Source: Candidatus Woesebacteria bacterium RIFCSPLOWO2_01_FULL_39_61 (lineage in GTDB: Bacteria > Patescibacteriota > Microgenomatia > UBA8517). Taken from it: a stretch of DNA of 64,000 bases. A model generated the notes under the pieces. That model was not told where the DNA came from, did not search any database, and worked only from the letters and a program-made list of their open reading frames with translations. Position 1 is the stretch's first letter. Every line of letters starts with the position of its first letter. Location: contig MGHI01000039.1 in assembly GCA_001793155.1 (NCBI GenBank), positions 1,119-65,118 on the forward strand, in the 5' to 3' direction. Made by a program: the position numbers and the translations under genes. Shown one piece after another: positions 2,522 to 59,466 of this stretch.

Positions 2522-3516
2522 TGTTAAATTTACAAGCTAAATTATCAAGCAAAGTTTTTAAAGAAGATATTGAACAAGTTCCGACCAGAAATGGGTATGG
2601 CGAGGGACTAATCGATGCGGGGGAGAAAGACGAAAGGGTAGTTGTTTTGTCAGCTGATTTGAAAGAATCGACAAGATCGCAGATGTTTGAGGATGCGTTT
2701 CCTGAAAGGTTTATCGAGGTCGGAGTTGCCGAGCAGGGAATGGCGACAATTGCGGCAGGAATGGCAAACTACGGGAAGATTCCTTTCATTGCATCCTACG
2801 CTACTTTTTCTCCCGGACGTAATTGGGAACAGATAAGAACGACAATTGCTCTGAATAATGTACCTGTCAAAATTGCTGGTCACCATGCAGGGATTTCGGT
2901 CGGACCTGACGGGGCAACACACCAAGCACTTGAGGATATTGCACTGATGCGGGTTATGCCGAATATGATTGTGATTGCGCCTTGTGATGCAATTGAGGCG
3001 AAAAAGGCTACCTATGAAGCTGCTTTTAACGCTAAGCCTACCTACATGCGATTCGCCAGAGAAAAAACACCGGTTTTTACGACCGAGGATACTCCATTCA
3101 AAATCGGCCGAGCTGAAATTTTTTGGGAGTCTAAGAATCCCGAGGTTGCAATTATCGGCTACGGTCCACTGGTTTACGAGGTATTAATTGCAGCCAGAGA
3201 GCTTGCAAGGACGGACCTTGAAAGCATGGTTATTAATTGTCATACGATTAAACCCATCGATGAAGATACAATTATTTCTGCTGCTAGAAAATGTGGCGCG
3301 GTCGTAACAGTTGAGGAGCATCAAATTACAGGCGGATTGGGGGGGGCCGTTGCTGAAGTTTTAGCGAAAAATTATCCGGTTCCGATGGAATTTATAGGTA
3401 TGCCAAACCACTTCGGCGAGTCGGGTAGTCCTGATGAGCTATTAGAAAAATGGGGAATGAAAGCAAAAAACATCGTCGAAGCGGTTAAAAAGGTCATCAA
3501 AAGGAAAACTTCTTAA
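2521..3516 (+). CDS. transketolase, C-terminal subunit (pyrimidine-binding plus C-terminal domains)
   Basis: 331 aa; split-transketolase C-subunit pattern (GIAEQGM-like region, C-terminal domain); no N-subunit gene adjacent. Confidence 0.85.
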   Translation: MLNLQAKLSSKVFKEDIEQVPTRNGYGEGLIDAGEKDERVVVLSADLKESTRSQMFEDAFPERFIEVGVAEQGMATIAAGMANYGKIPFIASYATFSPGRNWEQIRTTIALNNVPVKIAGHHAGISVGPDGATHQALEDIALMRVMPNMIVIAPCDAIEAKKATYEAAFNAKPTYMRFAREKTPVFTTEDTPFKIGRAEIFWESKNPEVAIIGYGPLVYEVLIAARELARTDLESMVINCHTIKPIDEDTIISAARKCGAVVTVEEHQITGGLGGAVAEVLAKNYPVPMEFIGMPNHFGESGSPDELLEKWGMKAKNIVEAVKKVIKRKTS

Positions 3517-3983: not shown

Positions 3984-5180
3984 TTAATACATAAGTAAAT
4001 ATCTGATAATAAGGAAAGAATTAATCATAAAAAGGAAAAATATGCTCGTAAGTATAAATGCTAGGTTCACTTGTTTCATTAGTTTCTCGATAAAGTAGGC
4101 GAGACCAAAGGTAATTATTGGGTAAGTCGTTATCAGCATCCGAATACTATATGATCCTCCCTGATAATAGTCTCGCCACGAAGCGATTAGATAAAGTTGT
4201 ATTAAAAAATAGAAAATCCCCATAAAACTTATCAATTTTTGCTTTTTCCAAAATAAAAATAATCCAAATAGACCCAGAGCAATCGTAGGAGTTAGTATAA
4301 AAAGCCCGTTCTGGATGTTAAAAAGTACATAACTTATATGGGGTGAAAGAAATGTGAACCCATAACCCCAACCGTAAGGCGGAAAATAAAAGTCAAAAAA
4401 TATTTTCCAAAGATAGATTTGAGGAAGAAAGCCGAGGAGGATACCAGTAACAAGTAACAAGTAACAAGTAACAAGAATTTTTAGATGCTTTCTGAACTTA
4501 AAAAATATCGCGATAGCGGGAATTGTAAAAATAATAATATCCTGCGTTCTTATAGTTCCAGCAAGTCCCGAAAGAATCCCAAGTATAAAAACGTCGCCGA
4601 GCGTGAGGTTTTCTAGTTTAGTTGACAAATAATAGACCACAAGTGAAGAGATAAAAAAAGACACAGCGTGGGAATTTATTGGTTCGACGGCGATATAGAA
4701 TAGGAGATTTGTGGTTGCAAAGAGAATAAATGCTGCAAATAAGCTGCTTTGGTTTTTAAAATATTTTTTCAAAGTATGGTAGACAAAAAATAGACCTAGC
4801 ACACCGAGAATGATGTTTATTAACCCGACGGCAAATTGATAAGTGAGCTCCAGTCCTGTTCTTTGCAAAGTTATCAATCTAACGAGGTTATCGGTTAGCA
4901 AATACGGAAAATACCATAAAATGGCAGACCCTGGAGCAAAGGTGTTTATCGCCAGACCTCGCGAGTTAACTGATGGTTTTATACCCAAAAGTTCGAAATC
5001 GTTTACTAAATTTATATCGCGATCAAAAACCCAGGATCTTACGTAGGCATAATAAAATTTACCGTCGCCAAAAACTGCGTTTTTGGTAAAGATGGTATGA
5101 CCAATAAAGATTACTATCGAAAAAATAAATATATATGTAAAAAATTTTATTGTGGCAATTTGCTTAATAGCTTTTTCCAT
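3984..5180 (-). CDS. polytopic membrane protein, possible GT-C-fold glycosyltransferase (ArnT/PMT-like)
   Basis: 398 aa with about 11-12 hydrophobic helices; contains the in-frame (GTAACAA)x4 tract. Confidence 0.4.
   Translation of the reverse strand: MEKAIKQIATIKFFTYIFIFSIVIFIGHTIFTKNAVFGDGKFYYAYVRSWVFDRDINLVNDFELLGIKPSVNSRGLAINTFAPGSAILWYFPYLLTDNLVRLITLQRTGLELTYQFAVGLINIILGVLGLFFVYHTLKKYFKNQSSLFAAFILFATTNLLFYIAVEPINSHAVSFFISSLVVYYLSTKLENLTLGDVFILGILSGLAGTIRTQDIIIFTIPAIAIFFKFRKHLKILVTCYLLLVTGILLGFLPQIYLWKIFFDFYFPPYGWGYGFTFLSPHISYVLFNIQNGLFILTPTIALGLFGLFLFWKKQKLISFMGIFYFLIQLYLIASWRDYYQGGSYSIRMLITTYPIITFGLAYFIEKLMKQVNLAFILTSIFFLFMINSFLIIRYLLMY
4447..4475. repeat. heptanucleotide tandem tract (GTAACAA)x4 inside a CDS
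   Basis: Direct reading: gtaacaagtaacaagtaacaagtaacaag. Confidence 0.8.
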
Positions 5181-34620: not shown

Positions 34621-36510
34621 ATGGATCCTATTAAAAGTTTAAAGAAATTATCACAAAAGAAACCTCAAAAATCCAAGAATCGTTTTGAATTTCGCCTTAA
34701 AATAAATCTTTGGAAGGTATTAATTGCCTTCTTTTTGGTAATCTTTTTTTTGCCCTTCTTAGTGTCTTTGCTTCAAATCCAGTCAACCGAAAGTAAGGTG
34801 GATACTTCCCAAGCACTTCTTGATGTTAAAGAAGGTAGGGTTGAGGAAATTATGATCCAAGACGAGAAGCTGATTTTAAATTATAAGGACGGATCCACGA
34901 AATTAGCCACTAAAGAATCGGGCGAGAGCTTTGCAGATCTTCTGGATAAATCCGGAGTTAATCCTACAGACGTTAAGTATACAGTTGTTGACCAATCACT
35001 TACACGGGTTATTGGAGAGGTCGCAAGCGTGGTCTTACCTCTGGCTCTTATGGCTTTATTTTTCTTTTTTATTCTCCGTGCTCAAACAAAGGGCGCGCAG
35101 GACATTTTTTCATTTGGTCGGTCCCGTGCCAGGCTTTTTGCCAAGGGTAAGCAGGACGTTACTTTCAATGATGTTGCCGGGGTTGATGATGCCAAAAAAG
35201 AGTTGGAGGAAATTGTTGATTTTTTGAAAAATCCGGCAAAATACAGAAAAATTGGAGCAAGAACACCCAAAGGAGTCATCCTTTTCGGCCCCGCCGGAGT
35301 CGGGAAAACGCTTCTTGCGCGGGCTGTTGCTGGGCAAGCCGGTGTACCCTTTTTTTCAATGGCAGGAAGTGAGTTTATGGAAATGTTGGTTGGAGTCGGG
35401 GCTTCAAGAGTCAGGGATCTTTTTCAAAACGCAAAAACTTCAGCGCCCTCAATTATTTTTATTGACGAGATAGATGCGATAGGGAGGCAAAGAGGACGTG
35501 GTTTTGTCGGAGGACACGACGAAAGAGAACAAACTCTAAATCAGATTTTGGTTGAGATGGATGGGTTTACTCCGAACGATAATGTGGTGGTTATTGCTGC
35601 AACCAATAGAGGAGATCTGCTCGACCCCGCGCTTTTAAGACCCGGGCGCTTTGACAGAAGAGTTCTTTTAGACATGCCGGACAAGGAAGGCAGGATTGCG
35701 ATATTAAAAATTCACGCGAGGGGTAAGAAATTTGGCAAAGGCATCGATTGGGAGAGAGTTGCGGATAGGACGGTCGGATTTTCAGGGGCTGACATTGAAA
35801 ACATGCTAAATGAAGCTGCAATTTATGCCGCAAGGCAGGATAAATCAGAAATTAATATGAGTGACGTAGAAGAGGCGGCAACAAAAGTTAAGCTCGGTCC
35901 CGCCAAAAGAAAACTTCAGAGCAAAGAGGACAAGAAACTTACAGCCTATCACGAAGCCGGACATGCAGTAGTTACACACTCCTTGCCAATGATGGATCCT
36001 GTTCATAGAATTTCAATTGTTGCCAGAGGTATGAGTCTCGGGCACACACTTATTCCTCCTGCTGCTGATAGGACCCATGAAACCAGAACTAGGATGCTTC
36101 AGCAAGTTACGGCAATGCTGGGTGGGCGCGCTGCCGAAAAAATAGTATTTGACGAGATGACTTCAGGTGCTTCAAATGATATTGAAATGGCGACTCGCTT
36201 GGCGCGCGCAATGGTGGTTGACTTTGGGATGAGTTCGCTCGGGCCGGTTAACTTGGGACCACAATACGACGTTGACGAAATGGGTAAAGCACAATGGTAT
36301 GAACCGGCACAGATATCCTCAAATACTCAGGAGAAGGTAGATAAAGAGATTGGTCTAATCATTGAAAATTGTTATAAGGAAGCTCTAGAGATAGTTAAGG
36401 AAAAGAAAAAAATACTTGAAAAAATAGTTGATCGGCTTTTAGAAAAAGAAACGCTAGACAGAGATGAGTTTGAGAAAATAGTTGGGAAGAAAAACAATGG
36501 TAGCAAGTAG
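34621..36510 (+). CDS. ftsH: ATP-dependent zinc metalloprotease FtsH
   Basis: AAA Walker A (GPAGVGKT), SRH, HEAGH zinc motif. Confidence 0.95.
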
Positions 36511-36589
36511 CTTGTAACAAGAAGTATGCAGCTGACTTCCCGTTCTACACTCTACATACTTCACGCTACAAATTTAGTAAAATAACCTC

Positions 36590-37492
36590 ATGTCCAAACT
36601 AGTCCTCATCGATGGTAACGCAATACTTCATCGTGCCTATCACGCTTTGCCACCTCTAACTACAAAGAGAGGAGAGCCGATTAACGCCGTATATGGGCTC
36701 GTCAGCATGCTTCTTAGAATAATACAGGAGCTTAAACCCACCCATATAGCAGTTGCCTTTGATCGGAAAGAGCCAACGTTCAGACAGAAAGAGTTTGCAG
36801 GCTATCAGGCTCAACGGCCTCCGATGGAGGATAATCTCTCGAGCCAATTCGAAAAAGCAAAAGCCACACTTAATGCCTTTGGGATTCCGGTTTACGAGCT
36901 AGCCGGTTATGAAGCCGACGACATTATCGGTACACTTTCCAATAAAGTTTTAAGTTCAGGAATTCAAAATGTGATTATAGTTACGGGCGACCGCGATATT
37001 CTCCAACTCGTTAACGGTAACGTCAAAGTCTATCTTCCAGTAAAAGGATTAAGCGAGGGAAAAGTATTTGGTATTGAAGAAGTAGTTGAAAAAATGGGAG
37101 TTAAACCATCCCAAATCCCTGATTACAAGGCTCTCGTTGGGGATCAGTCGGATAACTACAAAGGTGTTTCTGGAATTGGACCGAAGACAGCGATGAAGCT
37201 CATAGAAGAATATGGTAGTTTTGAAGCAATTTACAGAAACTTAAATTCACTTCCAAAACAAACAAAAGAAAGACTAGAGAGCGGCAAAAGCGGGGGAGAA
37301 ATGTCTCTGAAACTTGCAGAAATAGTCAGAGACATTCCGATAGAAGCAGATTTTGAAAAAATGAATAAATGGAGTGTCGATAGCAAACAAGTTTTAGACC
37401 TTTTTACCCAATTTGGCTTTAAAACTTTAACAAACAGGGTAAAAGAAGTTGGGAAAATGATTGTAAGCGAAAATCAGATGAAGTTAATATAA
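36590..37492 (+). CDS. 5'-3' exonuclease (FEN/Pol I N-terminal domain type, standalone)
   Basis: LVLIDGNAILHRAYHA, GYEADD and H3TH regions. Confidence 0.85.
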   Translation: MSKLVLIDGNAILHRAYHALPPLTTKRGEPINAVYGLVSMLLRIIQELKPTHIAVAFDRKEPTFRQKEFAGYQAQRPPMEDNLSSQFEKAKATLNAFGIPVYELAGYEADDIIGTLSNKVLSSGIQNVIIVTGDRDILQLVNGNVKVYLPVKGLSEGKVFGIEEVVEKMGVKPSQIPDYKALVGDQSDNYKGVSGIGPKTAMKLIEEYGSFEAIYRNLNSLPKQTKERLESGKSGGEMSLKLAEIVRDIPIEADFEKMNKWSVDSKQVLDLFTQFGFKTLTNRVKEVGKMIVSENQMKLI

Positions 37493-37622: not shown

Positions 37623-38012
37623 ATGATAAAAGGTATTGATGCAGTTACACTTTTTAGCGAAAACGCAGAAAAACTTGCTAAATTTTACAAAGAAAAAGTT
37701 GGCTTAAAACCAACTGGTGAATTTGTAATGGGTGAGGGAAAAGATGAGGCTAATGTATATATGTACGAATATAAAAAAGGTGGCGATTTTGCGATAATTG
37801 ACCACTCAAAAGTGAAAGGAAAGAATAAGAATCCGGAAAGATACCTCGTTAACTTCGAAGTTGATGATATAAAGAAAGAAGTTGCCAAGCTTAAAAAGAA
37901 TAAGGTTAAGGTTATTGCCGATACTTACCATGTAGAAGGGTACGGTTGGGTTGCAACTTTTCAGGATATTGATGGAAACTACTTTCAGCTGGTACAAGTT
38001 AGACCGAGTTAG
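37623..38012 (+). CDS. VOC/glyoxalase-family protein
   Basis: Small beta-alpha-beta-beta-beta modules; ORF track 37557.. trimmed to the ATG. Confidence 0.5.
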   Translation: MIKGIDAVTLFSENAEKLAKFYKEKVGLKPTGEFVMGEGKDEANVYMYEYKKGGDFAIIDHSKVKGKNKNPERYLVNFEVDDIKKEVAKLKKNKVKVIADTYHVEGYGWVATFQDIDGNYFQLVQVRPS

Positions 38013-38036
38013 TAGATAGCAAATAGTAGATAGAAG
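38009..38036. repeat. left inverted-repeat arm (agtagat agcaaat units) flanking the four-helix-bundle gene
   Basis: ttagtagatagcaaatagtagatagaag; its reverse complement recurs at 38439..38485. Confidence 0.8.
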
Positions 38037-38061: not shown

Positions 38062-38424
38062 GTGGCTAAAATCGAAAGATTTACAGATCTTAAAGCATGG
38101 CAAGAAGGGCACCAATTAGTCCTTATGATCTACGGAGTTGTCAAGACTTTCCCAAAAGAAGAAAACTTCATCCTTACTACTCAAATACTCCGAGCTGTAA
38201 TATCTGTTACTAATAATCTGGCTGAGGGGTTTGGTAGAAGATATTATAAAGAAAAAATTCAGTTTTATTCGATGGCCAGAGCTTCATTGGTTGAAGTTTG
38301 CAATCAACTTATGATAGCCAGAGATGTTGGTTATTTGAACAGAAAAGACTTTGACTTTGTATGGGAACAAACTGACAAAGTAGGTAGATTAATTACAGGA
38401 TTAATAAAAAGTATTAAAAAATAA
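38062..38424 (+). CDS. four-helix-bundle protein (TIGR02436-type, the '23S rRNA intervening sequence protein' family)
   Basis: LKAWQ...FPKEE...LTTQILRAV.S...NLAEGFGRR motif series typical of the family. Confidence 0.85.
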   Translation: MAKIERFTDLKAWQEGHQLVLMIYGVVKTFPKEENFILTTQILRAVISVTNNLAEGFGRRYYKEKIQFYSMARASLVEVCNQLMIARDVGYLNRKDFDFVWEQTDKVGRLITGLIKSIKK

Positions 38425-38438
38425 GACTTAGTCCTATA

Positions 38439-38485
38439 ATTGCTATTTGCAATCTACTATTTGCTATCTACTATTTGCTATCTAC
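38439..38485. repeat. right inverted-repeat arm (atttgct atctact units, three copies)
   Basis: attgctatttgcaatctactatttgctatctactatttgctatctac. Confidence 0.8.
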
Positions 38486-38489
38486 CAAA

Positions 38490-39611
38490 ATGAAAGTAGC
38501 ATTGGTCCATGACTACATAAAAGAGTATGGGGGTGCCGAGAGGGTTTTGGAAGCTCTCCACGAAATTTGGCCGAACGCAGACGTTTATACATTGGTTTAT
38601 CTGCCGAAATTTCTGGGACCCCACAGGGAGAGATTTAAAAACTGGAATATTAAACCTTCAATTCTACAATACGTACCCCTAAAGGGAAAGCTTATTAGTA
38701 TGTTTCGGTTGATTGATCCATTGGTTTTTAAAATGATGGATTTATCGGATTATGACCTAATTATTGTTTCGGCTGCTGGTACGTATACAGGGGTAAATTC
38801 ATTCAAAAAGAGTAAAAAATCACTTCATATCTGCTATTGCCATACACCCCCAAGATACTTATACGGTTATGCCACAGCCAATAAGTGGACGACAAATTCA
38901 CTGAGAAGATTTTTATTAATTTTGGGGCAAATTCCGATACACTTTATAAGACTTTATAATTTTATCGATTCCCAAAAACCTGATTATTTTATTGCAAACT
39001 CAAAAGAAATTGTTGCAAGAATAAATAAATTCTATAGAAGAGATGCAACTGTAATTCATCCGCCGATTGATATTCCAAAAATTCTCAAAAGTACTCCAAT
39101 AAAGGACAGAAAATATTATTTGACCGGAGGAAGATTAGCTAGGGCTAAGAGATTTGACTTGGCAGTCGAAGCCTGTACAAGACTTAATTTACCCTTGAAA
39201 GTCTTTGGCCGTGAATTTGCTGGCTACGGTAAAGAATTAAAAAGTTTAGCTGGTCCGACAGTTGAGTTTTTAGGTGAAGTCTCCCAGGAGAAAAAATGGA
39301 GTCTTATCAAGAATGCAAAAGCCTATATTTCTCCTTCCTTACAGGAAGATTTCGGCATGCTCAATTTGGAAGTTAATGCTGGTGGGACTCCCGTTATTGC
39401 CTATAAATCAGGGGGTGTTTTGGAAACCATAATTGATGGCAAAACAGGAATTTTTTTCGATGAACCAAGTGTAGAGTCTGTCATTGCCGCAATAAAACAG
39501 TTTAACAGGATAAAGTGGGACAAAAAGAAACTTCAAGAAAACGCTAGGAAATTTTCAAAAGAACGGTTTGAAGACGAAATAAAAGAGTTTGTAAAAGCTA
39601 GAGTTCAATGA
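38490..39611 (+). CDS. GT4-family glycosyltransferase
   Basis: C-terminal EX7E-like region (NLEVNAGGTPVIAYKSGGVLETIIDGKTG). Confidence 0.8.
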   Translation: MKVALVHDYIKEYGGAERVLEALHEIWPNADVYTLVYLPKFLGPHRERFKNWNIKPSILQYVPLKGKLISMFRLIDPLVFKMMDLSDYDLIIVSAAGTYTGVNSFKKSKKSLHICYCHTPPRYLYGYATANKWTTNSLRRFLLILGQIPIHFIRLYNFIDSQKPDYFIANSKEIVARINKFYRRDATVIHPPIDIPKILKSTPIKDRKYYLTGGRLARAKRFDLAVEACTRLNLPLKVFGREFAGYGKELKSLAGPTVEFLGEVSQEKKWSLIKNAKAYISPSLQEDFGMLNLEVNAGGTPVIAYKSGGVLETIIDGKTGIFFDEPSVESVIAAIKQFNRIKWDKKKLQENARKFSKERFEDEIKEFVKARVQ

Positions 39612-48034: not shown

Positions 48035-49132
48035 ATGCGTATTAATAAAATTAGACTTTCAAATTTCAGAAACTTTAAGGCCCAAATTCTGGAGTTTTCG
48101 GAAAAAATCATTGTTATTGTTGGTCCAAATGCATCAGGTAAAACAAATATTATAGAGGCGATATTTCTTCTTTCTACCGGTAAGTCATTCCACGCTCGAG
48201 TCGAGGAAGAGATGGTTCACTACGAAGAGGAAATTGGACGAGTAAAAGGTTCGGTGGTAGAAGCTGACAAAGAAAGAGTCGGTACAAATCTGGAGGTAAT
48301 CTTGACCCGCGGTGAAATTACAGTTGGTGTATCTCCCAAAAAAACCGAAAGGATTGCAAGGAAAAAATTGGTCGTTAATGGAGTTGCCCGGCGTCTGGTT
48401 GATTTTGCCGGGAGGTTCAAGGTGGTACTTTTTGGGCCTTGGGACATGAGTATCGTAACCGGACCCCCAACGCTTAGAAGGAATTTTTTGGACACAGTGC
48501 TATCGCAGGTTGACAGAGAGTATAGAAGGGCCTCCCTTTCCTATGAGAAAGGCCTAAGACAAAGAAACAGACTACTTTTCAGGATCAGAGAAGAAGGATT
48601 ATCGAGAAGCCAGCTTCTTTTTTGGGACCAACTTCTTATCAAAAACGGCAATTATCTAACCCAAAGGCGTGAAGATTTTATTGGTTTTGCAAATAAACGA
48701 CCATCTTTAAATAACCAAGTTTTTAATATTGAATACGACAAAAGTATCATCAGTCAGACCAGGCTGGAGCAGTATAAAGACGAGGAAGTTGCTGCCGCAA
48801 CTACACTGGTCGGACCCCACAGAGATGACTTCATCTTCAAAATCCAAAATCCAAATTCCAAATTCCAAAAAGAAAGAGAACTGAGCAGGTACGGGAGTAG
48901 GGGGGAACAGAGGATGGGTATCTTGTGGCTCAAAATAGCCGAGCTTTCTTTTATCGAGAGCGAATCCGAAGATAAACCGACTCTTTTATTGGACGATATT
49001 TTCTCTGAACTTGATCACGAACACAGAAAGATTGTTTTGGACGTTTCCAAAAACCAACAGACGATCATTACAACGGCTGATCCTCATTATATTGAAGAAT
49101 TTGAGAAAATTGAAATAATTAAGCTAAAGTGA
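48035..49132 (+). CDS. recF: DNA replication and repair protein RecF
   Basis: Walker A GPNASGKTN, signature and D-loop LLLDDIFSELD. Confidence 0.85.
   Translation: MRINKIRLSNFRNFKAQILEFSEKIIVIVGPNASGKTNIIEAIFLLSTGKSFHARVEEEMVHYEEEIGRVKGSVVEADKERVGTNLEVILTRGEITVGVSPKKTERIARKKLVVNGVARRLVDFAGRFKVVLFGPWDMSIVTGPPTLRRNFLDTVLSQVDREYRRASLSYEKGLRQRNRLLFRIREEGLSRSQLLFWDQLLIKNGNYLTQRREDFIGFANKRPSLNNQVFNIEYDKSIISQTRLEQYKDEEVAAATTLVGPHRDDFIFKIQNPNSKFQKERELSRYGSRGEQRMGILWLKIAELSFIESESEDKPTLLLDDIFSELDHEHRKIVLDVSKNQQTIITTADPHYIEEFEKIEIIKLK
48836..48870. repeat. heptanucleotide tract (TTCAAAA TCCAAAA TCCAAAT TCCAAAT TCCAAAA) inside recF
   Basis: Read directly; encodes an N/K/Q-rich loop (KIQNPNSKFQKE). Confidence 0.8.
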
Positions 49133-49146
49133 AATTATATGGAGCT

Positions 49147-49482
49147 TTATTCTTTGTCGTCTTTTTCTGCAAATTTGCTTAGGTTATAAGTGACCATCAC
49201 AGCCAGTGCAGTTACCAATATCGCATAAACCAGAAGAGAAACGAGTCCTGATCCCTCCCCGAAGTATGGCTTAACATAAATATTGACCACCTCCTTGATC
49301 AATTCGTTCCAGGCTAACGCCGCAACCAATCCAAAACCGCTTGTAACCAACTTTAAAGTTCTTTCCGCAAATTGCTTTTTGAATTTACTGGCCTCGTTTT
49401 TCAATTTTGACTGAAGAGCTTTGGTTTCCTCTTTTTGCTCTTTCAACTCTTTCTGGAGCTTAAGTTCTTTAAGGGTAGCCAT
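49147..49482 (-). CDS. hypothetical membrane protein
   Basis: ORF track 49147..49557 trimmed to Met (MATLKEL); C-terminal TM helices. Confidence 0.45.
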   Translation of the reverse strand: MATLKELKLQKELKEQKEETKALQSKLKNEASKFKKQFAERTLKLVTSGFGLVAALAWNELIKEVVNIYVKPYFGEGSGLVSLLVYAILVTALAVMVTYNLSKFAEKDDKE

Positions 49483-49507
49483 GGTTAGTGATAGTATATT
49501 GAGAGAA

Positions 49508-49583
49508 GTAATAAGTGACAAGTAACAAGCGACAAGATTTAGATATTGGAGGGACAACTTGTTACCTGTTACATGTTACTTAG
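49508..49583. repeat. solo inverted repeat of heptad units (GTGACAA/GTAACAA arms, 21-nt spacer)
   Basis: gtaataagtgacaagtaacaagcgacaag ... cttgttacctgttacatgttacttag. Confidence 0.75.
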
Positions 49584-50478
49584 AATTTTTGATAAGTCTG
49601 ATTTAATTAAACTCTACAAACCCCATCCAGAATCTTCAGGGGAAGATAATGGGCAGGTAACGATCGTCGGAGGATCCAAGCTTTTCCACGGAGCGCCGCT
49701 TTTATCTTTGACGACTGCTTCCAGAATTGTGGACATGGTCTTTTTTGCAACACCCGAGAAAAGCGTTGGGATGATCGCAGAAAAGTTAAAATCCAAATTA
49801 CTTTCGTTCATCTGGACACCTTGGGAGGATGTTGAATCCTATATCGAAAAGTCTGACGCCGTACTTATCGGACCCGGATTTATGCGTTTTGGAAGTGAGA
49901 GTACTTCCGAGGACGATCGTGATTTTTCAAACCACAATGAAGGGAAACAATCCAGGGGAATAACGGAAAGACTTTTAAAGAAGTTTCCCGACAAGCGCTG
50001 GGTAATTGATGCGGGGAGCTTGCAGACTATGGACGAAAGTTGGATTCCCAACGATTCTGTTCTCACCCCCAACGTTAAAGAGTTCGAATTGCTTTTCAAA
50101 ATGAAAAATCAAATATCAAATATTAAAGATTCAAATCAAAAATCAAAAATTGTTTTGGAAAAGGCCAAAGAACACAATTGTATTCTTGTTTTAAAGGGTC
50201 CTGAAACCGTCGTTTGTTCACCGGAAGAATGCGTTGTAGTTAGGGGAGGCAATCCGGGGATGTCAAAAGGAGGTACGGGTGATGTTTTGGCCGGATTAAC
50301 CGTTGCACTTTTAGCCAAAAACGAACCCTTTTTAGCGGCGTCCTGTGCAAGTTATATTGAAAAGGCTGCAGCTGATGAACTTTATAAAAAAGTCGGAACC
50401 AACTATAACGCCGATGATTTAACCAATAAAATTCCAGAAACCTTTTATAATTTACTAAATAATAAAGACCTACCCTGA
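49573..50478 (+). CDS. ADP/ATP-dependent NAD(P)H-hydrate dehydratase (YjeF C-terminal domain, Nnr2)
   Basis: GGS..F.GAPLL, DADAL-like, GGTGDVLAG motifs; ORF track 49546.. trimmed to the ATG. Confidence 0.8.
   Translation: MLLRIFDKSDLIKLYKPHPESSGEDNGQVTIVGGSKLFHGAPLLSLTTASRIVDMVFFATPEKSVGMIAEKLKSKLLSFIWTPWEDVESYIEKSDAVLIGPGFMRFGSESTSEDDRDFSNHNEGKQSRGITERLLKKFPDKRWVIDAGSLQTMDESWIPNDSVLTPNVKEFELLFKMKNQISNIKDSNQKSKIVLEKAKEHNCILVLKGPETVVCSPEECVVVRGGNPGMSKGGTGDVLAGLTVALLAKNEPFLAASCASYIEKAAADELYKKVGTNYNADDLTNKIPETFYNLLNNKDLP
50104..50152. repeat. A-rich heptad tract (7 units, AAATATC/CAAATCA-like) inside the nnr CDS
   Basis: Read directly; encodes NQISNIKDSNQKSKI. Confidence 0.7.
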
Positions 50479-50522
50479 GCGAAGCCGAAGGGTTGTTTTT
50501 TCCGCAGAATCTCCGTAAGATA

Positions 50523-50551
50523 GTAACAAGTGACAGGTAACAAGTAAAAAG
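50523..50551. repeat. left inverted-repeat arm (GTAACAA GTGACAG GTAACAA GTAAAAA) ending 3 nt before the four-helix-bundle gene ATG
   Basis: Read directly. Confidence 0.8.
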
Positions 50552-50553
50552 TT

Positions 50554-50925
50554 ATGGAAAAAGCTGGAATAAAACCTGTTGGATACGAGAAACTATTGGC
50601 CTGGCAGGTAGCAGATGAATTCGCGCGGGAAGTTTATTTGTTAACAGATTCTTTTCCTAAACATGAAGTGTATGGTTTGATATCACAATTAAGGCGTGCA
50701 GCACTATCAGTCCCGCTAAATATAGTTGAAGGTCATTCTAGATACAATAAAAACGAATTTCGTAATTTTTTGAGGATTGCTTTAGGATCTCTTGCAGAGA
50801 GTGATTATCTTCTTAAATTTGCTCTTAAAAGAAAGTATATTTCAGATAGTGATTACAAAAAAGTATCCATCTTGCGCGAGAAATGCGGCAAGTTACTTTG
50901 GAGCTTGATGAAATCGCAAAAATAA
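50554..50925 (+). CDS. four-helix-bundle protein (TIGR02436-type), second copy
   Basis: LLAWQ...FPKHE.YGLISQLRRAALS...NIVEG motif series. Confidence 0.85.
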   Translation: MEKAGIKPVGYEKLLAWQVADEFAREVYLLTDSFPKHEVYGLISQLRRAALSVPLNIVEGHSRYNKNEFRNFLRIALGSLAESDYLLKFALKRKYISDSDYKKVSILREKCGKLLWSLMKSQK

Positions 50926-50933
50926 TATTTAAA

Positions 50934-50960
50934 ACCTGTTACATGCTACTTGTTACTTAA
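50934..50960. repeat. right inverted-repeat arm (reverse complement of GTAACAA-type units)
   Basis: acctgttacatgctacttgttacttaa. Confidence 0.8.
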
Positions 50961-50967
50961 AACTGAG

Positions 50968-52029
50968 ATGTATTTTCCGAAGTTTACTATTACCAATAAA
51001 ACTCTGAAGAGTATAGGCCAAATCGAGGCAGCCAAAGAAGTAATAGAAAACGCACCCCTTGTTCCTTACTACGAAAAACAATTTCAGTCCGAGGCAATAG
51101 CTCGGATGGTTCACCACGGAACCCACATTGAAGGGAATGAACTCTCATTGGAACAAACCAGAAAAATTTTGGAAGGTGAAAACGTTGTAGCTTATGAAAG
51201 AGACATTCAAGAGGTAATAAATTATCGTAATGTCATGAACCTTTTGGAAGAACTCGTTCACAAAAGGGGAGGATACGATCTTCAAGGTTTAATCGACATC
51301 CATAAAGAAACTGTTAACAAAATTGTTCCTGATGAAAAAGTGGGGGTTTTAAGAAACACACAAGTTGTCATCAAGGAAGAAGGAAGCGGAGAGGTGATTT
51401 TACAGCCACCACCTTATATTGAAGTTCCGTATCTTATCGATGACTTTCTGGAATGGTTAAACGCAACAATCGCGAAAGAAATTCATCCGATAATCCGAGC
51501 TGGTATTGCACACTACATTTTGGTTGCCATTCATCCCTTTGTCGAAGGGAACGGGCGCACGATCAGAGCTTTCTCGAATTTGATTTTAATGCGCGAGGGC
51601 TATGACATAAAGCGTTTTTTTGCCTTGGAGGAGCACTTTGACGGAGATTTGAGCACTTACTATGAAGCTCTAGCCTTGGTCGATAGACAATCAAAAAATA
51701 TCGCTGCGAGGGATTTAACCAGCTGGCTTGAGTATTTTACCGGAGTCGTTGCTATAGAGCTATCCAAAATTAAAGAGAAGGTCAGGAAAATTTCCATAGA
51801 CACAAAGTTAAAAAGTAAAATTGGCGAACAGATTGCACTAACCGAAAGACAAATGAAACTGGTCGAATATCTTTCCGAAAATAATTCGGCCGGAATGCAG
51901 GAGTTGAGAAGGACGCTTCCAATGGTTTCCGAAGATACAATTTTAAGAGATGTTACAGATCTTATGGAAAAGAAAATCATCAAAAAGCAAGGAAAAACTA
52001 AAGCGTCGAGGTATATAATAAATAAATAA
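50968..52029 (+). CDS. Fic/DOC-family protein with a C-terminal winged-helix domain
   Basis: Fic motif HPFVEGNGRTIR. Confidence 0.8.
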   Translation: MYFPKFTITNKTLKSIGQIEAAKEVIENAPLVPYYEKQFQSEAIARMVHHGTHIEGNELSLEQTRKILEGENVVAYERDIQEVINYRNVMNLLEELVHKRGGYDLQGLIDIHKETVNKIVPDEKVGVLRNTQVVIKEEGSGEVILQPPPYIEVPYLIDDFLEWLNATIAKEIHPIIRAGIAHYILVAIHPFVEGNGRTIRAFSNLILMREGYDIKRFFALEEHFDGDLSTYYEALALVDRQSKNIAARDLTSWLEYFTGVVAIELSKIKEKVRKISIDTKLKSKIGEQIALTERQMKLVEYLSENNSAGMQELRRTLPMVSEDTILRDVTDLMEKKIIKKQGKTKASRYIINK

Positions 52030-52055
52030 ATTTAAAAAAATTAAGTACCAAAAAT

Positions 52056-52130
52056 AAAAATGTAATTTAAAATGTAAATTTTGGATTTTTATTTTTCATT
52101 TTGCGCTTTGCATTTTTGATTTTTGAATTA
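52056..52130. repeat. AT-rich intergenic block of heptad units (minus-strand reading TCAAAAA TCAAAAA TGCAAAG CGCAAAA TGAAAAA ... TCCAAAA)
   Basis: Read directly; same unit family as the recF and nnr tracts. Confidence 0.65.
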
Positions 52131-52136
52131 ATCACT

Positions 52137-52340
52137 ATGTCGCCTAACGACCCACAGTTTTTATATATGATTTTGATACTACCTTCTCTTTTTGGTTTGA
52201 CACTGGTTGGTGACGGTCTCAATAAGTTAATCCACGAAGAATCGGGTGGTCTTATAAGCATCGTCTTCGGTCTTATTTTTATCGCGGTTGTTATCTTTTC
52301 TTACCTTTTTTTCTCCACATACTTAACCCACCAGGTTTAA
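52137..52340 (+). CDS. small membrane protein
   Basis: ORF track 52101.. trimmed to the ATG; two hydrophobic helices. Confidence 0.4.
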   Translation: MSPNDPQFLYMILILPSLFGLTLVGDGLNKLIHEESGGLISIVFGLIFIAVVIFSYLFFSTYLTHQV

Positions 52341-58140: not shown

Positions 58141-59466
58141 ATGAATATCATTGCCGATTTGGAGGTTCACTCTAAGTACGCCCGGGCGGTTTCACCTTCA
58201 ATGAACGTTCCCACAATTGCCCTTTGGGCTGATAAAAAAGGAATTGATTTAGTGGGTAGCGGGGATTTTACTCACCCCATGTGGTTAAGGGAACTCGAAT
58301 CTCAACTGGAGGAGGATGGCGATGGGATTTATAAATTGAAAAATTCCGCAACAAAGTCTAGATTTTTACTGACCTCTGAAGTTTCTTGCATTTATACTCA
58401 CAACGGAAAAGGTAGACGAGTACACATCATGGTTTATTTACCAAGTTTTTCTTCTGTTAGAGCTTTTAATGAGGAATTGACAAAACGAGGCGCAAATTTA
58501 TTTTCTGACGGTCGGCCTATTATCGGTTTGACTCTTACCCAAGTAGCAGAAATTGCTTTGACGGTCGACAAAAGGGCTCTGATTATCCCAGCTCATGTTT
58601 GGACTCCCTGGTTTGGGTTTTACGGAAGTATGAGTGGATACGATAGTTTATCCGAAGCTTTTGGAAATCTGGAAAAATATATACCGGCGGTAGAAACAGG
58701 TCTTAGCAGCGACCCTGCAGCAAATTGGAGAATAGGAGAACTAGCTGGAAAAAGGATCGTTTCCTTCGGAGACGCGCACTCACCTCAAAAACTGGGTCGG
58801 GAAGCGACGGTGTTTCAAATTAAAAATTCAAAATTAAAAATTACTTACCAGGATGTTTATGACGCCATTTGGAATAAAACTGATGGTGGTTGGGAGATTG
58901 CGTATACAATAGAATTTTATCCGGAAGAAGGAAAGTATCACTATACGGGACACAGAAGCTGCAACATTGTCTATTCGCCGAATGAAGCCAGAAAATGGGG
59001 TATGACCTGTCCTACCTGCGGTAGGCAATTAACGATGGGGGTTATGAGTAGAGTAGAGGCACTTTCTTCGCAAGAAATTACAAATGACAAATTACAAATT
59101 ACAAATGATAAGTTGGGTGTAGCCTGGATTAGAGACGAGAAAGGAAAGTATCCTCCATACGTAATGCTTGTTCCGCTTTTGGAAATTCTTTCCGAAGCTC
59201 TGATTGCTGGAGTCGGCAGCCAGACGGTCATAAATGTTTATGAACAGTTAATACACAGTTTTGAAAGTGAATTCAATGTACTTCTTAAAACGGAAATAGC
59301 AGATATTGCAAAAATGGCGGGGCAGAAAATTTCTGAAGCAATTCAAAAAGTACGATCTGGTGATATTTTTATTAAACCCGGATATGATGGGGTTTTTGGT
59401 ACGGTAAAAATTTGGAAAGAGGAAGAAGAAAAAGAAATGGGTAACAATCAGGCAAGCTTGTTTTGA
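58141..59466 (+). CDS. endonuclease Q-like protein (PHP domain plus C-terminal zinc ribbon)
   Basis: N-terminal ADLEVHSKYARAVS...DLVGSGDFTHPMW pattern and C-terminal CPTCGRQLTMGV; resemblance to archaeal EndoQ is recalled from memory, not computed. Confidence 0.5.
   Translation: MNIIADLEVHSKYARAVSPSMNVPTIALWADKKGIDLVGSGDFTHPMWLRELESQLEEDGDGIYKLKNSATKSRFLLTSEVSCIYTHNGKGRRVHIMVYLPSFSSVRAFNEELTKRGANLFSDGRPIIGLTLTQVAEIALTVDKRALIIPAHVWTPWFGFYGSMSGYDSLSEAFGNLEKYIPAVETGLSSDPAANWRIGELAGKRIVSFGDAHSPQKLGREATVFQIKNSKLKITYQDVYDAIWNKTDGGWEIAYTIEFYPEEGKYHYTGHRSCNIVYSPNEARKWGMTCPTCGRQLTMGVMSRVEALSSQEITNDKLQITNDKLGVAWIRDEKGKYPPYVMLVPLLEILSEALIAGVGSQTVINVYEQLIHSFESEFNVLLKTEIADIAKMAGQKISEAIQKVRSGDIFIKPGYDGVFGTVKIWKEEEEKEMGNNQASLF
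58814..58845. repeat. heptad tract (TTCAAAT TAAAAAT TCAAAAT TAAAAAT) inside the EndoQ-like CDS
   Basis: Read directly. Confidence 0.7.
59077..59111. repeat. heptad tract (ATTACAA ATGACAA ATTACAA ATTACAA ATGATAA) inside the EndoQ-like CDS
   Basis: Encodes the duplicated peptide ITNDKLQITNDKL. Confidence 0.8.

Follow-up and report, generated by a model that had tools for sequence, protein, structure and literature searches.

What is a gene for a small four-helix-bundle (4HB) protein, enclosed by two facing arrays of tandem heptads, doing directly in front of a conserved gene for a Fic-domain protein? The question arises from positions 50522-50957 of the window analysed here, a 64,000-nt stretch of contig MGHI01000039.1 from Candidatus Woesebacteria bacterium RIFCSPLOWO2_01_FULL_39_61, a candidate-phyla-radiation genome of the Rifle aquifer. 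We conclude, with a probability of about 0.85, that this segment is an inserted 4HB cassette of the type known as intervening sequences (IVSs) of ribosomal RNA (rRNA) genes, here placed in the leader of a protein-coding gene. The parts of the locus, all on the plus strand, are as follows.

50522-50552, plus: 5' arm of the 50-kb cassette, 4.4 tandem heptads (AGTAACA / AGTGACA / GGTAACA / AGTAAAA) on the purine-rich strand, directly after the -10 box; found with Tandem Repeats Finder (TRF) and by pairing
50554-50925, plus: 4HB gene (TIGR02436 / PF05635 23S_rRNA_IVP, 'S23p'), 123 aa; from profile score and open reading frame (ORF)
50934-50957, plus: 3' arm, the reverse complement of the 5' arm (ACCTGTTAC ATGCTAC TTGTTACT); from pairing
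50493-50521, plus: promoter-like block of Fic, with a -35-like TTGTTT (50493-98), a 17-nt spacer containing CCGCAG...CCG and a -10-like TAAGAT (50516-21); from conservation and position
50968-52029, plus: Fic-domain protein with a C-terminal winged-helix domain, the host gene, real start ATG 50968; from domain and synteny
49573-50478, plus: nnr, start ATG 49573

The two arms match each other well above chance. Positions 50522-50545 (AGTAACAAGTGACAGGTAACAAGT) pair with 50934-50957 (ACCTGTTACATGCTACTTGTTACT) over 24 nt with 83% complementarity (20/24), with weaker pairing outside the core 3' arm over 50926-50967, and the stem is present in both the minimum-free-energy and the centroid folds of the cassette RNA. 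By TRF the period-7 array covers 50522-50552. Only 4/2000 dinucleotide shuffles reach the pairing score of the cassette flanks, and among 1709 equally spaced segment pairs across the 64 kb the two 4HB genes of the window, this one and another near 38 kb, occupy ranks 1 and 2. The cassette thus has complementary termini that are predicted to form an enclosing stem, as those of IVSs do. An original prediction, made from the letters of the window, had placed a TIGR02436-type gene at 50554..50925 between GTAACAA/GTGACAG-type heptad arms, the right one starting 9 nt after the stop codon as the reverse complement of the left, with a Fic gene directly behind and nnr upstream, and had named chance-level complementarity as the result that would overturn it. 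These points hold, except for the end of the left arm, which it had put 3 nt before the ATG: the array stops 1 nt short of it and its strictly complementary part 8 nt short.

The enclosed protein scores 110.3 bits (E 5e-32) in the hidden Markov model search against TIGR02436, above the curated cut-off of 24, and is thereby assigned to the TIGR02436/PF05635 family; PF05635 (23S_rRNA_IVP) is also the precomputed Pfam family on all its close homologs. The nearest solved relatives are 2gsc (XCC0516, E 6e-18) and 2rld, and from the sequence match to these solved bundles the protein is predicted to adopt a four-helix-bundle fold. The family motif RxxxSxxxNxxE is present as R48, S52, N56 and E59, all invariant in the homolog alignment; in the longer form GxxRxxxSxxxNxxE (PMC3936711), the position of the leading G is held by Q45. 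The ratio dN/dS is 0.12 against the ortholog in L006, one of the related loci, which shows, at the level of codon comparison, that the ORF is under purifying selection and encodes a selected protein. No Shine-Dalgarno-like sequence is seen upstream of either 4HB gene of the window, and no defence-system model matches either protein in a PADLOC scan, where Fic alone gives a match. Identical copies of protein and contig are on record, for example in GCA_001792515.1.

That the cassette is an insertion emerges from the Fic locus of relatives. The order DUF5654 (minus strand), nnr, Fic, DNA ligase is conserved and common to 80 related metagenome loci, with 53-78% identity in Fic, where we searched for an upstream 4HB gene using a profile built from 4HB proteins. 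One of the 80 (L087) carries such a gene and 79 do not, the sporadic presence among relatives that is typical of IVSs; in L134 the same profile finds a 4HB gene downstream of Fic. The empty junctions that were read contain neither cassette nor arms. More than 30 empty loci have the block TTGTwTTTTCCGCAnnnnnTGCGgTAATAT, whose end is separated from the Fic ATG by about 7-17 nt (usually 7-10), as exemplified by L144 ('...ccgtaagat tggatta ATG') and L108 ('...ccgtaagat tagggtatta ATG'). The window reads TAAGAT, then the cassette, then TAAAACTGAG, and the ATG of Fic follows at 50968, with 10 nt separating it from the 3' arm. Because the empty relatives have the block directly before the Fic ATG, the ~436 nt of 50522-50957 represent an insertion in the leader of the conserved Fic gene, exactly between its -10 box and its start codon. 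No target-site duplication is recognisable when filled and empty junctions are compared.

From its conservation and position we infer that the block is the Fic promoter, that it belongs to the host and that it marks the insertion point. A consensus promoter scan did not list it, because its -35 hexamer matches at 3/6 positions only. The short distance from block to ATG suggests that the Fic mRNA is leaderless or has a very short leader. Across dozens of Woesebacteria-like genomes (loci L088-L162) the -35-like and -10-like hexamers of the block are separated by a palindrome, CCGCA-N5-TGCGG, which suggests an operator; the window, L006, L087, L108, L144 and L146 have the variant CCGCAGAwTyTCCGTAAGAT, with a degenerate palindrome. 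Since the cassette lies downstream of the promoter-like block and no site resembling a terminator was found in 50925-50968, from the 4HB stop to the Fic ATG, co-transcription of 4HB and Fic from the Fic promoter, a question the prediction had raised, would be the simplest reading.

Orthologous sites are filled in L006, L166, L087/L008 and L167/168, and the L010 site is filled too. A neighbour-joining tree of Fic groups the filled loci in a single subclade that they share with empty loci, the two kinds being intermingled, and the Fic of the filled L010 is the most divergent in the tree; one gain with later precise losses and repeated gains would both be compatible with this pattern. Fic and nnr are bystanders, host gene and upstream neighbour, and not partners of the cassette.

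The cassette also has a history of its own. Between the window and L006, nucleotide identity is 85-96% (~91%) across 50494-50973 and drops to ~50-80% (mean ~68%) in the nnr and Fic flanks, and synonymous divergence is 0.36 for the 4HB gene and saturated for Fic. A generally slower rate of the cassette is excluded, because against L166 and L087 it is no more similar than its flanks. The identity step and the difference in dS indicate that the cassette was transferred or converted between lineages long after the flanks had diverged. Homologous recombination by way of the promoter block and the 5' end of Fic would suffice to explain the window-L006 event; it does not account for de novo insertion at the many different junctions found elsewhere. 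As for the database records, several contigs from metagenome-assembled genomes titled 'uncultured Gammaproteobacteria bacterium' (L006, L008, L011, L012 and others) have Woesebacteria-like content and the synteny nnr / 4HB / Fic, and their labels look wrong.

A second cassette in the same window has the same build.

38007-38031, plus: 5' arm of the 38-kb cassette (TTAGTAGATAGCAAATAGTAGATAG), overlapping the stop codon of an upstream glyoxalase-family gene
38062-38424, plus: 4HB gene of the 38-kb cassette, 120 aa, 32% identical to the 50-kb 4HB protein
38440-38485, plus: 3' arm of the 38-kb cassette (CTATTTGCTATCTA x3.1), ending 4 nt before the glycosyltransferase ATG at 38490

Its arms match perfectly over 24-25 nt, a score that 0/2000 dinucleotide shuffles reach. 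The unit, TAGTAGA/TAGCAAA, differs from that of the 50-kb cassette and the arm sequences of the two are unrelated, so that the prediction of a different unit in an identical architecture was right. In the relatives L169 and L172/173 the glyoxalase gene is followed by the glycosyltransferase gene across a 50-85-nt spacer with neither 4HB gene nor heptads; presence is thus polymorphic among relatives at this site as well as at the Fic loci.

How general the arrangement is was assessed on 80 loci with 4HB homologs (48-90% identity), taken from one-genome-per-species contigs, chosen by protein only and spanning Woesebacteria, Blackburnbacteria, Levybacteria, Omnitrophota, Planctomycetota, Nitrospirota, Elusimicrobia and others. 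In 43/77 loci the flanks share an ungapped inverted repeat that scores at least 12, compared with 14/231 mismatched-locus controls, in which the left and right flanks came from different loci. When RNAduplex pairing was set against shuffles, 36/57 loci had z below -2 and 23/57 below -3, the corresponding numbers for flanks displaced by 700 nt being 5 and 1. In the mean of 62 loci, the self-similarity of both flanks peaks at lags 7 and 8, and the harmonics at 14, 16 and 21 are visible as well; this signal is gone ~1 kb away. The flanks are A-rich upstream and T-rich downstream. The near-perfect tandem arrays around 4HB genes have a period of 7 or 8, except one downstream array of period 5, and their units vary by clade (GTCACAA, AAGAGCAT, AAGGCACT, AAAACGT, GATAAGA and others). 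Cultured cyanobacteria also carry 4HB genes with facing arrays on Nostoc and Anabaena plasmids: on pNe_5 of Nostoc edaphicum, (GTAGGGA/GTGGGGA)x8 faces (TCCCTAC)x5, and on pANA02 of Anabaena sp. 90 (L178) a 4HB gene between cas6 and cas4 has (AGGTGAC)n facing (CTGTCAC)x4; pNPUN02 of Nostoc punctiforme is another carrier. The first two loci have features of their own. The Anabaena cassette shows ~100 nt of flank complementarity within a type I-D CRISPR-Cas operon, and the Nostoc cassette (L177) has a ~40-bp stem and lies antisense between two ribonucleotide reductase genes.

The survey shows that the heptad-stem package is the usual setting of the 4HB family across bacteria of the candidate phyla radiation (CPR), Omnitrophota, Planctomycetota, Nitrospirota and cultured cyanobacteria. 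The original prediction of a recurring design, a heptad stem enclosing a small gene, consequently extends beyond this genome (36/57 loci against 5/57 controls), and the observation it had named as fatal, homologous cassettes lacking the arms, is not what the 43/77 loci against 14/231 controls reveal. Position relative to neighbouring genes is just as regular. In the 36 strong-stem loci, a co-directional ORF of at least 90 aa starts at most 30 nt after the 3' arm in 20 and at most 60 nt after it in 28, and a co-directional ORF ends at most 30 nt before the 5' arm in 21; over the whole set, the nearest neighbours are co-directional in 51/57 loci on each side. The cassettes typically fill operon junctions or leaders in sense orientation, which fits a promoterless element living on host transcription.

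Taken together, these features suggest how such a cassette might be tolerated. Lacking a promoter, it would depend on that of the host and form the first cistron of a joint 4HB-Fic transcript, in which the arms would pair as a ~24-bp stem. RNase III would cut this stem as it does in rRNA IVSs, releasing the cassette RNA and leaving Fic on a short-leader mRNA near its original, probably leaderless, form. Such excision would account for hosts tolerating the element within rRNA helices as well as in 5' leaders and at operon junctions. The stem could at the same time bury the translation start of the cassette and limit 4HB synthesis: in several orthologs the 5' arm extends into the first ORF codons (VTSNKLVGY), and neither 4HB gene of the window has a Shine-Dalgarno-like sequence before it, so that the stem would also occlude the initiation region. 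A hint of an RNA-level role comes from the non-Watson-Crick positions in 53 stems, where G.U outnumbers A.C by 79 to 52 (p = 0.023). We consider the full mechanism, RNase III excision included, to be evenly poised between right and wrong.

Several points weigh against it. The fold of the whole cassette reaches only z = -1.5, the window stem is imperfect with 4 mismatches in 24, the G.U excess is modest, and many genomes have highly co-directional neighbours in any case. The promoter assignment draws only on conservation and position, and transcription, stem formation and cleavage are all putative here. No RNase III signature occurs in the six-frame translation of the 64-kb window, which is uninformative about the rest of the genome. 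Column-wise stem covariation across orthologs was dropped, because the order and number of heptads vary and arm positions are not homologous; it was replaced by a comparison of own and foreign arms, in which the two arms of one GTNACAA-family ortholog pair no better with each other than with arms from other loci, so that no locus-specific compensatory change is apparent. The arms are complementary because both are inverted arrays of one heptad family, and a DNA-level process could equally yield such complementarity.

Hairpins made of the same kind of repeats but lacking an ORF bear on this last point. The prediction had noted a solo copy of the inverted repeat upstream, and it is indeed present:

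49506-49581, strand not assigned: ORF-less 'solo' hairpin of the GTAACAA-type heptad family of the 50-kb cassette, 24-nt arms, 28-nt loop; from fold and arm similarity

It lies in the divergent spacer between the DUF5654 gene (minus) and nnr (plus), overlapping the nnr ATG at 49573, folds with z = -4.7 and has arms 78-83% identical to those of the cassette. The same site is occupied in L087 and lacks the hairpin in L089, L093, L096, L098, L099 and L115. Both arms contain outward-facing promoter-like hexamer pairs (49493-49586), TTGTCA-17-TATACT on the minus strand before the DUF5654 gene and TTGTTA-16-TAGAAT on the plus strand at the nnr start. The TATACT -10 of the DUF5654 side is kept in relatives without the hairpin, and so the heptads may supply -35 elements. 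In L109, another ORF-less hairpin of ~75 nt (locus positions 2925-3000), made up of repeats of the AAGTTTA type, separates the Fic -10 box from the ATG, at the very site of the cassette, and the DUF5654/nnr spacer of that genome holds only a direct GTGATAA/GTAATAA/GTGACAA array without a partner arm.

A role of the arms in DNA is the alternative that survives best, although we still regard it as rather unlikely on its own. The arms would then be terminal inverted repeats or recombination signals of a mobile element, acting perhaps as cruciforms or single-strand hairpins recognised by a trans factor or by the 4HB protein, much as repetitive extragenic palindromes (REPs) spread as REPINs with RAYT, and the RNA stem would be a by-product. 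Presence/absence polymorphism at two sites, a cassette far younger than its flanks, the ORF-less hairpins nearby and at the Fic leader site of L109, the lack of locus-specific compensation and the antisense Nostoc copy (L177) are all in line with this. It has to contend with the absence of any transposase, integrase or nuclease domain in or beside the cassette and of a target-site duplication at filled/empty junctions, with the possibility that the window-L006 exchange was ordinary homologous recombination, and with the strong sense-orientation bias relative to neighbours and the G.U excess. Moreover, a single end-recognising enzyme is unlikely, since two cassettes in one genome have unrelated arm sequences. 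The DNA-level explanation is nevertheless compatible with an IVS-type insertion.

A less probable possibility, which we hold to be improbable, is that the arrays are putative binding sites for an oligomeric 4HB ring, which would wrap the repeats as TRAP wraps GAG repeats and so control its own translation or the folding or cleavage of the stem; the inverted layout would merely put sites on both sides. Tandem arrays of 3-9 units that keep a fixed period of 7-8 and lie directly at the start codon would suit such a ring, as would the purifying selection on the 4HB ORF and the properties of the related Avd, which binds RNA and reverse transcriptase. Relatives of the protein form homopentameric toroids (Lin 2006, as reported in PMC4990558). 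Arm unit type follows protein clade and not genome, two types coexisting in the window genome, but this correlation does not discriminate because any cassette co-inherits arms and gene. Protein-repeat binding is itself putative, the ORF-less hairpin of L109 has no adjacent cognate gene, and copy numbers go well beyond five. Neither a DNA-level role nor binding arrays for a 4HB pentamer would exclude RNA processing.

One could go further and imagine TIGR02436 cassettes as a widespread selfish class excised at the RNA level, of which rRNA IVSs would merely be the most visible landing site. The 4HB pentamer would bind the heptad arrays, as RNA or DNA, and either control how the stem folds and is cut by RNase III or help the cassette and its ORF-less hairpin derivatives to be copied into new transcribed junctions, maybe with a reverse transcriptase as Avd does. 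This is a long shot; if true, it would link part of the cyanobacterial heptamer repeats, a puzzle of long standing, to a gene family.

A functional pairing of the two genes, with 4HB as, for example, the antitoxin or regulator of a Fic toxin and the arms as an element that regulates both, is very improbable. They are neighbours not only in the window but also in L006, L087/L008, L166, L167/168 and the distant L010, and Fic matches a defence model, but Fic retains its own conserved promoter-like block and cassettes elsewhere adjoin unrelated genes (the glycosyltransferase gene in the window, cas4, ribonucleotide reductase and many others). A role of 4HB as Fic antitoxin was rejected in view of the empty sites and of an obligate co-occurrence that fails, L087 being the only case in 80. 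The defence model in question is the PADLOC SoFic model (E 1.6e-44), yet the Fic gene is placed in core-like conserved synteny. Finally, chance complementarity of low-complexity AT-rich sequence, for which one might cite the 40% GC of the window and its several other heptad arrays, is refuted by the shuffles, the window-wide ranking and the recurrence of the design in dozens of unrelated genomes, and is scarcely credible.

These other arrays deserve a brief description. At 4446-4475 a perfect (AGTAACA)x4.3, the same heptad as in the 50-kb arms, lies within the coding sequence of a 398-aa membrane protein (3984-5180, minus) and encodes ...KILVTCYLLLVTG..., and no inverted partner was found near it. 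A-rich arrays (CAAAATC, AAAATCA, AAATTAA, AAATTAC) at 48835-48871, 50098-50150, 58817-58844 and 59075-59111 are likewise inside coding sequences, namely recF, nnr and a large ORF near 59 kb. The one in nnr encodes KMKNQISNIKDSNQKSKI in a loop of hypervariable length among relatives, and its (AAAATCA)n (50097-50150) is complementary to a (TGATTTT)n array downstream of Fic (52066-52129) over 38 nt at 74%, with an 18-nt core at 94%. This pair brackets the nnr 3' end, the cassette and Fic; the downstream array stands just before a small membrane-protein ORF (ATG 52138), and the bin at its start (52054-52113) has no aligned match in L006 or L087. A further imperfect hairpin at 36512-36571, with 20-nt arms at 80% and a 20-nt loop, occupies a 79-nt spacer between an ftsH-like ORF (ending at 36510) and a 5'-3' exonuclease ORF (starting at 36590), with GTAGCAAGT/GTAACAAGA motifs at its 5' side.

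How does the cassette relate to systems already described? Two candidates were tried and set aside. It does not qualify as a transposable element or miniature inverted-repeat transposable element, having no transposase-like domain, arms that differ between cassettes and no target-site duplication. Nor is it a diversity-generating retroelement: it shares with Avd of those elements the four-helix-bundle superfamily, which in Avd makes a nucleic-acid-binding pentamer, but the 4HB protein matches the Avd model weakly (26.6 bits against a cut-off of 80), and the cassette and the genes next to it, called as DUF5654, nnr, Fic and ligase, showed neither reverse transcriptase nor template/variable repeats.

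Neisseria Correia/NEMIS elements are RNase III-cleaved hairpin repeats, and the solo and L109 hairpins resemble them as short inverted repeats at junctions, presumably co-transcribed, with processing here hypothetical. They likewise resemble the ORF-less IVSs of Salmonella, Yersinia and others, including the polymorphic presence. Unlike both, they consist of tandem heptads and have no defined conserved ends. REP/REPIN-RAYT systems, in which RAYT is an HUH transposase and REPs are conserved palindromes, are similar in having a single small gene between inverted short repeats and ORF-less hairpin copies in other intergenic DNA; the 4HB protein differs in having no known catalytic fold, and its repeats are tandem 7-8-mers with an own unit for each cassette. 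The cyanobacterial short tandemly repeated repetitive (STRR) heptamers and the TAACTGA repeats of Beggiatoaceae are intergenic tandem heptanucleotide arrays, mostly forward and ending 1 to a few nt before a start codon (PMC4679880). The cyanobacterial 4HB genes found here are flanked by arrays of this kind, whereas the published repeats are described as direct, with no 4HB link and no stem-forming partner array (PMC4679880). PF05635 genes have been noted inside cas operons with the flanking heptad stems unmentioned (PMC3936711), and earlier papers put PF05635 genes in CPR 16S/23S insertions, again without mention of heptad stems. In the searchable literature, with subscription papers and database comments outside its scope, we found no description of a general link between the 4HB family and flanking heptad stems, the heptamer connection being made by the Coxiella IVS paper alone (PMC4990558).

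The closest counterpart is the ORF-bearing rRNA IVS. The IVS in helix 45 of the Coxiella burnetii 23S rRNA is 428 nt long and has a 28-bp terminal stem with an S23p ORF in the loop, 3-4 tandem GACAGAT heptamers of strain-variable copy number before the ATG, and RNase III cleavage at the first heptamer; the IVSs of Leptospira, Salmonella and alphaproteobacteria are also cut by RNase III (PMC4990558), and an ORF-bearing 23S IVS of Leptospira was reported by Ralph & McClelland 1993 (as cited in PMC4990558). The original prediction missed that this architecture is already described there. The window cassette agrees with ORF-bearing rRNA IVSs in ORF family (S23p / PF05635), in size (428 nt against ~436 nt), in a terminal complementary stem of ~24-28 bp, in tandem heptamers directly upstream of the ATG, in a poor or absent Shine-Dalgarno, in sporadic occurrence among relatives and, by its position, in probable sense transcription from a host promoter. 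It departs from the Coxiella case in that heptads build both arms, where the paper describes the 5' side, and in an ORF under purifying selection, where that of Coxiella is reported to be decaying and not translated; cleavage by RNase III is demonstrated there and conjectural here (PMC4990558). An Rfam scan of 49300-52300 at E<=1 returned no hits, and the cassette flanks are nnr and Fic, not an rRNA gene helix (23S helix 9/25/45, or 16S).

To our knowledge, rRNA IVSs have been known since about 1990, with their origin and the role of the S23p ORF still unexplained. The two window cassettes, in a Fic leader and between two protein genes, turn this rRNA curiosity into a general and testable class of operon-junction cassettes. 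They account for 'four helix bundle protein' genes annotated inside otherwise conserved operons, and the culturable carriers identified here lend themselves to work on RNase III processing, protein-repeat binding and mobility. Compared with the rRNA IVSs, the same combination of an S23p gene, a heptad stem and, probably, transcription from a host promoter is now found outside rRNA, in the leader of a protein gene with clean empty sites.

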